A DNA stretch of 64,000 nt, from NCBI RefSeq assembly GCF_057098645.1, contig NZ_CM169472.1; one strand, written 5' to 3'. Position numbers and translations under genes: made by a program. This document shows positions 24,776 through 49,110 of this stretch, in pieces. Every line of letters starts with the position of its first letter. Within the stretch, counting starts at the first letter, position 1. The notes under the pieces were generated by a model. It saw nothing but the letters and a program-made list of their open reading frames with translations, ran no database searches and had not been told where the DNA came from.

Positions 24776-25588
24776 TTAGTCCGCCAGAAATAGCGGGCCC
24801 ATTGGCGGTTTTGGAAGATCATACCGGTCAGGGTAATCCACCGCGACCAGATACAGCCCTTCCGCTTTTGCCGTTGCTGCCGCCAGCGTTCTGTCCTTTG
24901 CCGCCAGCAACTCTGCTATCCAGCTCTCCGGCTGGTTGTGGGCACCGACTTCCATCAGGCTGCCGACAATATTCCTGACCATATGATGTACAAAGGCATT
25001 CGCTTTGATATCAACCACCACATAAGGACCGTGACGCGTGACATTAATATGCATAACGTTGCGCCACGGGGTTCGGGACTGGCACTGCACCGCACGGAAC
25101 GAGGTGAAATCATTCTCGCCCAGCAAGCACTGCGCAGCCCGATGCATCCGTTCAGCGTCCAGCGGTTCGTAAAAATGGGTTACCCCTTTACTCAGTACCG
25201 CCGGGCGCAGCCGATGATTGTAGATGATGTAGCGATAACGGCGAGCCGTGGCGCTAAATCGGGCATGAAAATCATCAGGTACAGCTTTAACCCAACGCAC
25301 GGCGATGTCACCAGGTAAATTCGCATTTACGCCCAACGTCCACGCAGCGTCTTTGCGCTGCGCGGTAGTTTCGAAATGCACAACCTGCCCGGTACCGTGT
25401 ACCCCTGCGTCAGTACGCCCGGCGCAGAAGACGGTGATGGGTTCGTTCGCCACCTGGGAGAGCGCCTTTTCCAGCTTCTCCTGCACACTGCGAACTTCAT
25501 TCTGCCGTTGCCAGCCGTAATACTTACTGCCGTCGTACTCAATGCCCAGCGCAATTTTATAAACTGGCGGTTGTTGCTGGTCGGACAT
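24776..25588 (-). CDS. truA: tRNA pseudouridine(38-40) synthase
   Basis: 270 aa; catalytic-region GRTDAGVH motif. Confidence 0.96.
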
Positions 25589-26601
25589 TAGTACAGATAC
25601 TCCTGCACCAGTTTCTCGGCGATTTTTACTGCCATCAGCGCGCCGCCAAAGCGAACGTTATCGGCCACCGACCAGAACTGGACTTGCTCCGGCATACCGT
25701 AGTCATTACGCACGCAGCCAACAGAAAGATGCGGCGTACCAGAAGCATCACCTACCTGAGTTGGGAATTCGTTCTCTTCAGAGAGCACAATATCTTCGCC
25801 TTGAACAAACGCATCACGCGCTTCTTCTGCTGCCAGTGGACGCAGAGCTTCAAAGTTGACCATCTGGGCATGACCGTAGAATACCGGTGCCTGGACGACG
25901 CTTGCCGAAATCATCAGCCCTTCGTCCTGCAGGATTTTGCGTACTTCGTCAACGATACGACGTTCTTCACGCACGCTACCTTCGCTATCCGGCAGTAACG
26001 GCAGCATGTTGAACGCCAGCTGACGCCCGAAGAAATCTTCTTCGTCAATCGGAATGCCGTTGAGCAATTTCGCACTCTGCCCCGCTAACGCCTCGACCGC
26101 TTTTTTGCCCTGGGCGGAGGCTGAAATCAGGCTGGTAACACTGATACGCGACAAACCGCCCTGATCGATTAACGGTTTCAGTGCCGCCAGCAGCTGGCAG
26201 GTCAGACTGTCTGGTACGGCGATGACATTCCGGTTGCGGTAATCGGTCAGTACAAACGGGTTTACTTCCGGCACCACCAGCGGTACGTCGGGTTCGAGAG
26301 CAAACAATCCGCTGCTGTCGATCACCAGGCAACCTGAGTTGGTCGCTTCTTCAACCCAGGCTGCGGTAGCTTCTTTGCCTGCGACAAAAAATGCCAGCTG
26401 CGCCTGCGTCCAGTCGAATTCAGCGGCATCCTGCACGGTGATTGTCTTACCACCAAAGCGCAGTTGCTCGCCTGCGCTTTCGTTACGTGCCAGTGCATAA
26501 ATTTCCCCAACCGGGAACTGACGTTCAGCCAGCGTTTCAAGCAGGGCTTCGCCCACAGCGCCAGTTGCGCCCAGGACGGCAATGTTCCAGCCTTCAGACA
26601 T
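25588..26601 (-). CDS. usg: USG-1 protein (aspartate-semialdehyde dehydrogenase paralog)
   Basis: 337 aa; N-terminal Rossmann VLGATGAVG; stop overlaps truA start. Confidence 0.93.
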
Positions 26602-26666
26602 GGTGGTTTACTCCAGAAATAGCAAAGCTCCCTGCCAATGTTACAGCAGAGAGCATGAAGAAGAGA

Positions 26667-46277: not shown

Positions 46278-46763
46278 TCAGATAGCTTTCGCCATCTTCA
46301 GATTACACGGGCTCATCTGCCAGTTGAATGTGCCGTTTCCGCTTTCATCAAGCGTTACGCTCGCAATGGCCGAGGTGGTAAACATAGGCGGCGTTTCGCC
46401 CGGACATAACTCGGCAACCAGATACCCGACTAACGGTAAGTGGGAGATAACCAACACCGAAGCAACACCTTCATTGGTCAACGCCTGCAAATAGGCACTG
46501 ACCAGACCAACATCGCCGCAGGGCGTTAACTCCGGCAGAACTTCTGCACTGGAAGGCAGGTTCAGACAATCCCCTACTTCCTCCAGTGTTTGCTCGGCTC
46601 GCAGGAACGGGCTCACCAGAACGCGTTCGATTTCCACTTTTTGACCTTTCAGCCAGTTCGCCATCAGGCGAGATTCGTCACAACCATTAGTGGTAAGAGG
46701 ACGAACCGAATCACTGGCGGCATCGAGGGCTGCGTCGCCGTGACGCATGATAAAAACTTGCAT
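46278..46763 (-). CDS. sixA: Phosphohistidine phosphatase SixA
   Basis: 161 aa; N-terminal catalytic RHG motif. Confidence 0.95.
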   Translation of the reverse strand: MQVFIMRHGDAALDAASDSVRPLTTNGCDESRLMANWLKGQKVEIERVLVSPFLRAEQTLEEVGDCLNLPSSAEVLPELTPCGDVGLVSAYLQALTNEGVASVLVISHLPLVGYLVAELCPGETPPMFTTSAIASVTLDESGNGTFNWQMSPCNLKMAKAI

Positions 46764-46965
46764 ATTGCACCGCTTTTGTTAACCAGATTCGCCCGTTTTC
46801 TTTCATCTGAAACCAGAGAAAGAAAACGGTGTCCGGCATTGTGCCTTATCCATTCACCGAATGAAACGCTGTTTTTTACCTCAATGGTGTAAGTATAGTC
46901 AATATGCGTTTACATTTTGACCAACAATCCGCCATTCAGCGCGGATTCATATAGCTTTGACCCTT

Positions 46966-49110
46966 TTAATGAGGGTCAGTTGCACTTGTTTTCCAAAAAC
47001 TTTCCCCGCGCTCGCTCATCTCTAATAAACGCTCGCAAGGGGTAAAACGAGAACCATACTGCGTGGCCAGTCGTTGCATTATTGCAACCACTTCGCCCGC
47101 GCCGAGAGAATCGATATAGCGAAACGGTCCACCGAGAAATGGCGGAAAACCAATGCCAAATACCGCACCAATATCCCCGTCACGCACGCTACGGATAACC
47201 TGCTCATCAACACAACGTACTGCTTCATTCAGCATCAACATCACACACCGTTCAGCAACCTGCGGTGCGGAGAGTCGCCCCTGCCCTTGTGCGCCAATGA
47301 GCGGGTAAATGGCAGGATCGACCTGTTTTTTGCTTTTACGCCCTTTCTGACCATAAAGATAGAAACCCCGACCATTTTTTCTGCCTTTGCGATCGTCGTT
47401 CAAAATTGAAGAAACAACATTTGCAGGCGCGCTAAAACGTTCTCCATAAGCGGCTTCCAGTACAGGAATAATTTTAGTCCCGGTGTCGATTCCTACCTCA
47501 TCCAAAAGTTGGATTGGACCTACCGGAAAACCAAATTTCACTAGCGCGGCATCAATGTGCTCTACCCGTTCACCTTCGGTCAGCATGCGGATAGCTTCAT
47601 TAATGTAAGGCGCTAAGATGCGATTGACGTAAAACCCGGCTTTGTCACGCACGACAATGGGCGTTTTGCCCTGTTTTTTCGCCAGTTTTACCGTAGTGGC
47701 GATGGTTTGCGCTGATGTACCCGCATGAGGAATAATCTCCACCAGCGGCATTTTTTCCACCGGACTGAAGAAATGCAAGCCAATAACTTGCTCAGGTCGC
47801 GCGGCGTGAGCGGCGATATCACCAATCGGTAAAGATGACGTATTCGAAGCAAAGATGGTATGAGCGGCGCAATTTTGCTCAACTTCCGCCACCATCTGTT
47901 GTTTCAATTCGAGATTTTCAAACACCGCTTCAATAATCAGATCGCGATGGGCAAAGCCGCGATAGTCCGTCGTTCCGGAGATTAATGCCAGCTGTTTGTC
48001 ACGTTCACTGGCTTTGAGATGACGACGGCGAACTTTGCCCTCCAGCTGATCCCAACTGTACTTCAGCGCATGATTTATGCCCTGCGGGTTGATATCTTTA
48101 ATTCTGACCGGAATCCCCGCTTTACAAGCAGTGACATAAGCAATACCGCCGCCCATCAAGCCACCACCTAAAATCCCCACGCTGTTTAATGGCGCAGGCG
48201 GCGCATCACTGCCGGGATCTTTCTTCACTTCCGTACTGGCAAAAAAGATACTACGCAAAGCTTGCGATTGTGGCGTCATCGCCAGTTCGCCAAACGCCCG
48301 TGCTTCAGCGTCATAGCCACTGCTGGTGCCCTGCGCTAATCCCGTTTCAACAACCTCCAGGATGCGTTCTGTCGCCGGATAATTGCCTTGAGTTTTGTGT
48401 TCTGTTTTCTTGCCGACCATTTTGAACAGCAGCGCACGACCTAACGGCCCCGCCAGAATACGCTCGCGTACAGGTAGAGGGCGGGAAGATGGGCGATCCT
48501 TCTTTGCTAGCTCAACAGCGGCTTCCAGCAGAATGGAGTGCGGAACAACGTCATCCACCAGCCCCAGCTTTAATGCCTGTTTCGCCCGAAGTTGTTTTCC
48601 GGTGAGGATCATCTCTAATGCTGTGCTGACGCCTATCAGACGCGGTAAACGCTGGGTGCCACCTGAACCGGGTAACAATCCAAGTTGTACTTCAGGCAAA
48701 CCGAGCACCGTTTTAGGATCGTCAGTACAAACGCGACCGTGGCACGCGAGCACCAACTCCAGCCCGCCGCCCAGGCAAGCGCCATGAATAGCCGCGATAA
48801 CCGGAACGGGCAAAGCATGAATCTCTGCCATTAACTTTTGCCCCTGCCGCGCCAGTGCTTCCGCTTCTTGCGCCGTTTTGCAGTTGCCGATCATGTTGAT
48901 GTCTGCGCCAGCAATGAAGTTGTCCGGTTTAGCGGAGACAAACACCACGCCTCGCAACTCTTTGTTTTCACGGAGTTGCTTAATAATGGCGCGCACCTGC
49001 GAGGCAAACTCCGCCTTCAGGGTATTCATTTTCTCACCCGGTACGTCGATGGTGATAACGGCAATGTTGTCCAGACGAACATTAAGGGTAAACGCTGATG
49101 TCATTTCCAT
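46966..49110 (-). CDS. fadJ: Fatty-acid oxidation complex alpha subunit (anaerobic)
   Basis: 714 aa; enoyl-CoA hydratase plus 3-hydroxyacyl-CoA dehydrogenase domains. Confidence 0.96.

Follow-up and report, generated by a model that had tools for sequence, protein, structure and literature searches.

Conserved stop/start overlaps and a tail-to-tail gene overlap of known classes in the yfbS to argW region of Escherichia coli

Are neighboring genes whose stop and start codons are annotated as overlapping truly joined in this way, and does translation of the second gene depend on translation of the first? This question is raised by a 64,000-nucleotide stretch (the window) of contig NZ_CM169472.1 from RefSeq assembly GCF_057098645.1, which is E. 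coli chromosome, from yfbS to argW, of an enterohemorrhagic E. coli (EHEC)-type strain. An earlier note, made from the sequence alone, described overlapping stop and start codons at six junctions (truA/usg, epmC/yfcA, yfcA/mepA, fadJ/fadI, hisM/hisQ and dedD/folC), took them to suggest translational coupling, and added two convergent genes, flk and yfcJ, that overlap by 4 bp at their 3' ends. The stop/start overlaps and the tail-to-tail overlap are real and conserved, and their classes have already been described. Very probably, these are ordinary E. coli operon junctions with reinitiation at stop-to-start spacings of -1 and -4 (negative values denote overlaps, in nucleotides), a largely independent start for dedD, and an excludon-type overlap of flk with yfcJ. 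Because this is the usual, known way in which genes of E. coli abut, we consider the finding ordinary.

Reading of the sequence placed all seven junctions where the earlier note had put them, and the RefSeq annotation concurs. The span that it gave for them, 25588-49110, is correct for five; hisM/hisQ (15001) and dedD/folC (21626) lie outside it. Every gene at these junctions is on the minus strand, with flk alone on the plus strand. Because the higher-coordinate gene of a minus-strand pair is the upstream one, the transcriptional order is usg>truA, mepA>yfcA>epmC, fadI>fadJ, hisQ>hisM and folC>dedD. One further overlap, yfcR>yfcQ, had been missed and is included below.

usg/truA, minus strand: usg stop TAA at 25588..25590, truA start ATG at 25586-25588; 1-nt overlap, TAATG
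yfcA/epmC, minus strand: yfcA stop TAA at 34703..34705, epmC start ATG at 34701-34703; 1-nt overlap, TAATG
mepA/yfcA, minus strand: mepA stop TAA at 35512..35514, yfcA start ATG at 35510-35512; 1-nt overlap, TAATG
fadI/fadJ, minus strand: fadI stop TAA at 49110..49112, fadJ start ATG at 49108-49110; 1-nt overlap, TAATG
hisQ/hisM, 15001..15004, minus strand: hisQ stop TGA, hisM start GTG; 4-nt overlap, GTGA
folC/dedD, 21626-21636, minus strand: folC stop TAA at 21626-21628, dedD start GTG at 21634-21636; 11-nt overlap, GTGGCAAGTAA
yfcR/yfcQ, 41057..41060, minus strand: yfcR stop TGA, yfcQ start ATG; 4-nt overlap, ATGA
flk/yfcJ, 28894..28897, convergent: flk stop TAA at 28895-28897 (plus strand), yfcJ stop TAA at 28894-28896 (minus strand); TTAA shared

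The same-strand pairs are too close for a promoter or a terminator to fit between the genes, and at each of these junctions a Shine-Dalgarno-like motif lies inside the upstream open reading frame (ORF) and is conserved across species. The truA start has a GGAG motif 11 nt upstream, within usg, and the epmC start has GGGGA upstream, within yfcA. GGAGG lies 8 nt upstream of fadJ, AGAGGG upstream of hisM, and GAGGAG 6 nt upstream of the dedD GTG; the motif ahead of yfcA is only weak. Three near-abutting junctions had also gone unmentioned, namely yfcP>yfcO (0 nt), yfcQ>yfcP (+2) and aroC>mepA (+3).

Conservation of the starts was followed in a Usg-anchored scan of one genome per species, which yielded 80 Enterobacteriaceae loci, each with flanks of up to 10 kb; orthologues were placed by tblastn and then extended to their stops. 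The usg>truA spacing was -1 in 80/80 species, as TAATG or TGATG (the stop alternates between TAA and TGA), and the motif caGGAGta was invariant. In 74/74 species, folC>dedD had a spacing of -11 and a GTG start, with GAGGAG or GGGGAG invariably 6 nt ahead of the GTG. The mepA>yfcA junction stood at -1 in 33 of 35 species (0 and +11 in the remaining two), and YfcA proteins share a conserved M-[D/E]-x-F N-terminus. Among 46 species, yfcA>epmC was at -1 in 37, -4 (ATGA) in six, +3 in one and +16 in two. TAATG with an upstream GGAGG recurs at fadI>fadJ in Salmonella, Lelliottia and Leclercia. At hisQ>hisM, Salmonella and Klebsiella have GTGA and Erwinia has ATGA at the same position; the HisM N-terminus is conserved from residue 1. 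As controls for spacer drift we used the non-overlapping junctions pdxB>usg, truA>dedA, accD>folC, epmC>yfcL and dedA>accD in the same 80 loci; these showed 10-24 distinct spacer lengths versus 1-4 at the overlapping junctions. Revised starts that remove the overlaps, the outcome that the earlier note had named as counting against it, were not obtained; start positions are conserved across genera.

An upstream TTG at 21654 was considered as the dedD start and rejected, as it is not conserved and directly follows an in-frame TGA. The supplements of a tetracycline ribosome-profiling paper, searched for start-site evidence, mention none of these genes. Homologues in the protein database of the genes at 14288-15687 of the window include HisQ-HisM fusions (388 and 338 residues, one from E. 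coli), presumably created by a frameshift or a miscall where the two genes overlap by 4 nt. One K. pneumoniae genome has an apparently frameshifted hisQ ahead of hisM.

Published measurements bear on how the overlapping genes are expressed. Co-transcription of pdxB-usg-truA-dedA was shown in Salmonella by reverse transcription PCR (PMC6358828). In strain K-12, mRNA levels are equal within two of the pairs (usg 196 and truA 198; folC 159 and dedD 154), and the corresponding ribosome densities are 206.7 and 76.7 for usg and truA, and 145.4 and 61.8 for folC and dedD (PMC5318159). The downstream/upstream density ratio at equal mRNA is therefore 0.37 for truA/usg and 0.43 for dedD/folC, and any coupling at usg>truA and folC>dedD is, per these densities, not equimolar. 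For the pairs other than usg/truA and folC/dedD, we infer a common transcript from their geometry alone. Elsewhere, coupling was seen at four of the five native E. coli overlaps that were tested (PMC6728339), and its efficiency is highest at spacings of -4 to +3 and lower with longer overlaps (PMC12548453). Four pairs in the window lie at -1 and two at -4, within the range of -8 to +10 nt; folC>dedD at -11 is outside it.

These data suggest the following mechanism. Both genes of each same-strand pair would be carried on one mRNA, and the 3' end of the upstream gene would contain the ribosome-binding site of the downstream one. Where the spacing is -1 or -4 (usg>truA, mepA>yfcA, yfcA>epmC, fadI>fadJ, hisQ>hisM and yfcR>yfcQ), a terminating ribosome would be positioned on or beside the downstream start and would probably reinitiate there, with help from the internal Shine-Dalgarno motif and at an efficiency of less than one; downstream output would then be tied to upstream translation, yet lower. 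Reinitiation is proposed here because most of the tested overlaps were coupled and because efficiency peaks in this spacing range. At folC>dedD, the GAGGAG-N6-GTG arrangement probably initiates largely alone, with at most weak coupling, since -11 falls outside the efficient spacing and the Shine-Dalgarno motif is strong and well spaced. For the junctions at -1 and -4, translational coupling is plausible on this analysis.

The proposal of the earlier note that the flk and yfcJ transcripts must be antisense to each other at their ends follows from the geometry and is confirmed by published RNA-seq. The flk-yfcJ pair belongs to a set of 165 convergent excludons called in E. coli MG1655 from 58 RNA-seq samples, where membership of the excludome means presence in at least 50% of the samples (PMC12288877). 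These are unrelated convergent genes with interdigitated stops, and the pair would represent a convergent transcriptional overlap of the excludon type. There is no intergenic DNA between the two genes, so any terminator must be intragenic. A consensus terminator scan returned one weak hairpin plus T-run for yfcJ (28846-28830, minus strand), which is not conserved, and in 21 species that share the geometry, the 200 nt beyond each stop yielded essentially no hairpin plus T-run. Lacking a spacer and a convincing intrinsic terminator, both transcripts would extend into the opposing gene.

The 21 sampled species that have the -4 geometry belong to Escherichia, Citrobacter, Salmonella, Yokenella and Pluralibacter, and the shared tetramer is TTAA in 11, CTAA in five, TTAG in three and CTAG in two; outside Escherichia, Flk identity is only ~61%. 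A spacer of 26-105 nt separates the two stops in Klebsiella, Raoultella, Enterobacter, Leclercia and others, where the protein C-termini are unchanged; these spacers contain GC-rich palindromes, some resembling repetitive extragenic palindromic (REP) elements. In further species yfcJ is absent, or other genes stand between yfcJ and flk. Because the genes are spaced or separated elsewhere, the flk/yfcJ overlap is dispensable and one of several tolerated states.

As a separate observation, the 38-85 nt flk/yfcJ spacer of Klebsiella and Enterobacter contains a strong GC-rich palindrome that looks like a bidirectional terminator; a palindromic spacer of this kind is lacking in Escherichia, Salmonella and Citrobacter. 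Two other convergent pairs of the window, yfcH-rpnB (47 nt apart, 11479-13310) and smrB-yfcO (113 nt apart, 38558-40062), are likewise in the K-12 excludon list (PMC12288877).

Three other explanations for these overlaps have to be weighed. If the annotation were at fault, the true starts would lie downstream and the genes would not overlap. A second ATG two codons into fadJ, the use of GTG as a start by dedD and hisM, and the fact that the NCBIfam model of YfcA and the TIGR model of TruA begin at residues 4 and 10, respectively, could all be read in this way. However, the start codon is at its annotated position in 33-80 species per junction. The second fadJ ATG (codon 3) is replaced by a Thr, Leu or Ala codon in many homologues, which identifies the first ATG as the start, and the hisM GTG is replaced by ATG at the same position in Erwinia. 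The dedD GTG keeps its 6-nt distance from the conserved GAGGAG/GGGGAG, and FadJ, HisM and DedD match their full-length NCBIfam models from the first residue on. An annotation artefact is extremely improbable on this evidence; judged by sequence conservation, the overlaps are not artefacts and the annotated starts are sound. The overlaps could also be genuine but neutral by-products of compaction and of stop/start mutation, with independent Shine-Dalgarno initiation and no regulatory consequence, and one paper argues that 4-nt overlaps arise stochastically (PMC2174442). Every junction has its own Shine-Dalgarno-like motif, and usg/truA, mepA/yfcA/epmC and folC/dedD join functionally unrelated partners, leaving no stoichiometry to keep. 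Several further observations weigh against our preferred reading of coupled reinitiation. Density ratios of ~0.4, as for truA/usg and dedD/folC, need no coupling and fit independent weaker initiation as well as partial reinitiation, and the same data set (PMC5318159) holds no values for mepA, yfcA, epmC, fadI, fadJ, hisQ or hisM, that is, for four pairs. In at least one overlap native to E. coli, bioBF, initiation occurs de novo and is uncoupled (PMC6728339). Folding of a 100-nt segment at every one of the seven same-strand junctions gave no structure more stable than those of shuffled controls (z-scores -1.3 to +0.9); with no unusual structure occluding the starts, a mode of coupling by RNA unfolding is without support. 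The constancy of overlap geometry is also partly forced, because insertions and deletions in doubly coding sequence are harmful with or without coupling. Against a neutral origin stand the four coupled overlaps among the five tested in E. coli, the yfcA>epmC junction, which toggles between -1 and -4 instead of opening a spacer in 43/46 species, and usg>truA, which stays at -1 despite a changing stop codon. In addition, HisQM are two permease subunits of one ATP-binding cassette (ABC) transporter and FadIJ form one heteromeric enzyme complex, matching the 4.5-fold enrichment of complexes among tight junctions of E. coli (PMC10666635). We therefore regard a purely neutral origin as somewhat unlikely.

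The third explanation concerns flk and yfcJ alone and holds that their overlap is a selected regulatory device, a true excludon in which expression of the flagellar regulator Flk would exclude that of the major facilitator superfamily (MFS) transporter YfcJ, and vice versa, because polymerases collide and RNase III cleaves the duplex. The presence of the pair in the K-12 excludome (PMC12288877) would fit such a device, as would the -4 spacing kept in 21 species of five genera despite the low Flk identity and the varying tetramer, with no intrinsic terminator close behind either stop. Many other Enterobacteriaceae, however, have a 26-105 nt spacer or no yfcJ beside flk, and a literature search turned up no functional link between Flk and YfcJ. 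Within the -4 state, moreover, only changes between TAA and TAG, on either strand, keep both stops; any other change of the tetramer destroys one, so the geometry would be frozen without selection. The observed tetramers are exactly the permitted variants, and their conservation consequently needs no selection on the overlap itself. A selected device is thus unlikely. A more specific form, in which the overlap is a selected switch between the flagellar checkpoint regulator Flk and a copper-related MFS transporter YfcJ, a link that lineages with the palindromic spacer would have lost, is slightly more doubtful still.

Overlaps as a class are far commoner than chance, and their density in the window is not unusual. 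Convergent overlaps are rarer, yet well described. Among the same-strand neighbor pairs of the window, 7/41 (17%) overlap and 11/41 lie at -8 to +10 nt. An overlapping share of ~15% is typical of most prokaryote groups (PMC6728339), E. coli has 820 pairs at -8 to +10 versus 1,630 at more than +20 (PMC10666635), and same-strand intergenic distances of prokaryotes peak sharply at -4 and -1 (PMC10666635; PMC12548453). An unusual density of overlaps was accordingly rejected (17% versus ~15%), and the numbers of -1 and -4 junctions (four versus two) are too small for their difference to carry meaning.

For practical purposes, the annotated starts of truA, epmC, yfcA, fadJ, hisM and dedD can be taken as sound and their junctions as fixed across Enterobacteriaceae. 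When genes here are deleted or tagged, the gene that follows may be translated less after an insertion in usg, mepA, yfcA, fadI or hisQ, and both flk and yfcJ are disrupted by a cassette placed at the end of either. Beyond good annotation the overlaps have little significance, and they open no new question.

The 12 kb around the junctions is 99.9% identical to E. coli chromosomes, and most of this region is present in 5,114 of 5,426 complete genomes. RefSeq genes of a 99.9% identical strain, mapped on the window, have the same gene ends as in the earlier note. In the best RefSeq match the order begins yfbS ... ackA-pta ... hisJQMP ... purF-cvpA, dedD-folC-accD, and continues with dedA-truA-usg-pdxB, flk, yfcJ, fabB and mnmC. 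Then follow yfcL-epmC-yfcA-mepA-aroC-prmB, smrB and the yfc fimbrial genes, and finally sixA, fadJ-fadI, yfcZ, fadL, mlaA and yfdC. The yfc fimbrial operon, from yfcO to yfcV (39223-45635), lies between smrB and sixA. Salmonella, Lelliottia and Leclercia lack it at that position, and its genes follow one another very tightly (-4, 0, +2, +15 and +22 nt).

When the entire window was scanned against Rfam, no junction gave a match; the sole matches were two REP-type naRNA4 units and a tRNA-Arg. The naRNA4 units stand in tandem, 91 nt apart, at 20750-20820 and 20841-20911 on the minus strand in the cvpA-dedD spacer (20534-20973). This spacer, 440 nt long, exceeds that of strain C325 (258 nt) by 182 nt, and given the two tandem units the strain of the window appears to have two extra repeat units. 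The top match of the spacer in a spread listing, O145:H28 strain 12E115, is 100% identical. The tRNA-Arg is at 56483-56554, and the window departs from the C325/12E115 backbone directly after it. The region 56483-63300 contains a prophage tail-fibre remnant and the type III effector genes nleD, nleH1, nleC and nleB2. This content points to a strain of EHEC or enteropathogenic E. coli (EPEC) type with an island at that tRNA gene.

All of these arrangements have counterparts among known systems. In papers of the Winkler laboratory from 1985-87, the one-base overlap of usg with hisT (truA) and lower synthesis of the hisT product were reportedly already described. The hisT operon of E. coli and Salmonella, pdxB-usg-truA-dedA, has the same gene order and co-transcription (PMC6358828), with no difference from the window. 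The same-strand junctions resemble the coupled overlaps of E. coli and Haloferax, which are -4 NTGA or -1 TGATG/TAATG (Huber et al. 2019, 2023; reviewed by Brown & Wade 2025), and the motifs TAATG, GTGA and ATGA are identical here. As in that termination-reinitiation class, the genes share operons, the Shine-Dalgarno motif lies in the upstream ORF, and the spacing is within -8 to +10. Members of the class typically encode subunits of one complex, as do two pairs here (hisQM and fadIJ); in contrast, three junction groups join unrelated proteins, and folC>dedD at -11 is beyond the efficient range. Convergent stop-stop overlaps take the form CTAA, TTAA, CTAG or TTAG (Lillo & Krakauer 2007); flk/yfcJ has TTAA, and related species show exactly these four permitted tetramers. 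Finally, flk-yfcJ is named in the K-12 list of convergent excludons of E. coli (ExcludonFinder 2025), and any terminator would have to be inside the opposing gene. A functional excludon is defined by reciprocal regulation and RNase III processing, whereas flk/yfcJ is known here from its geometry and its RNA-seq listing.

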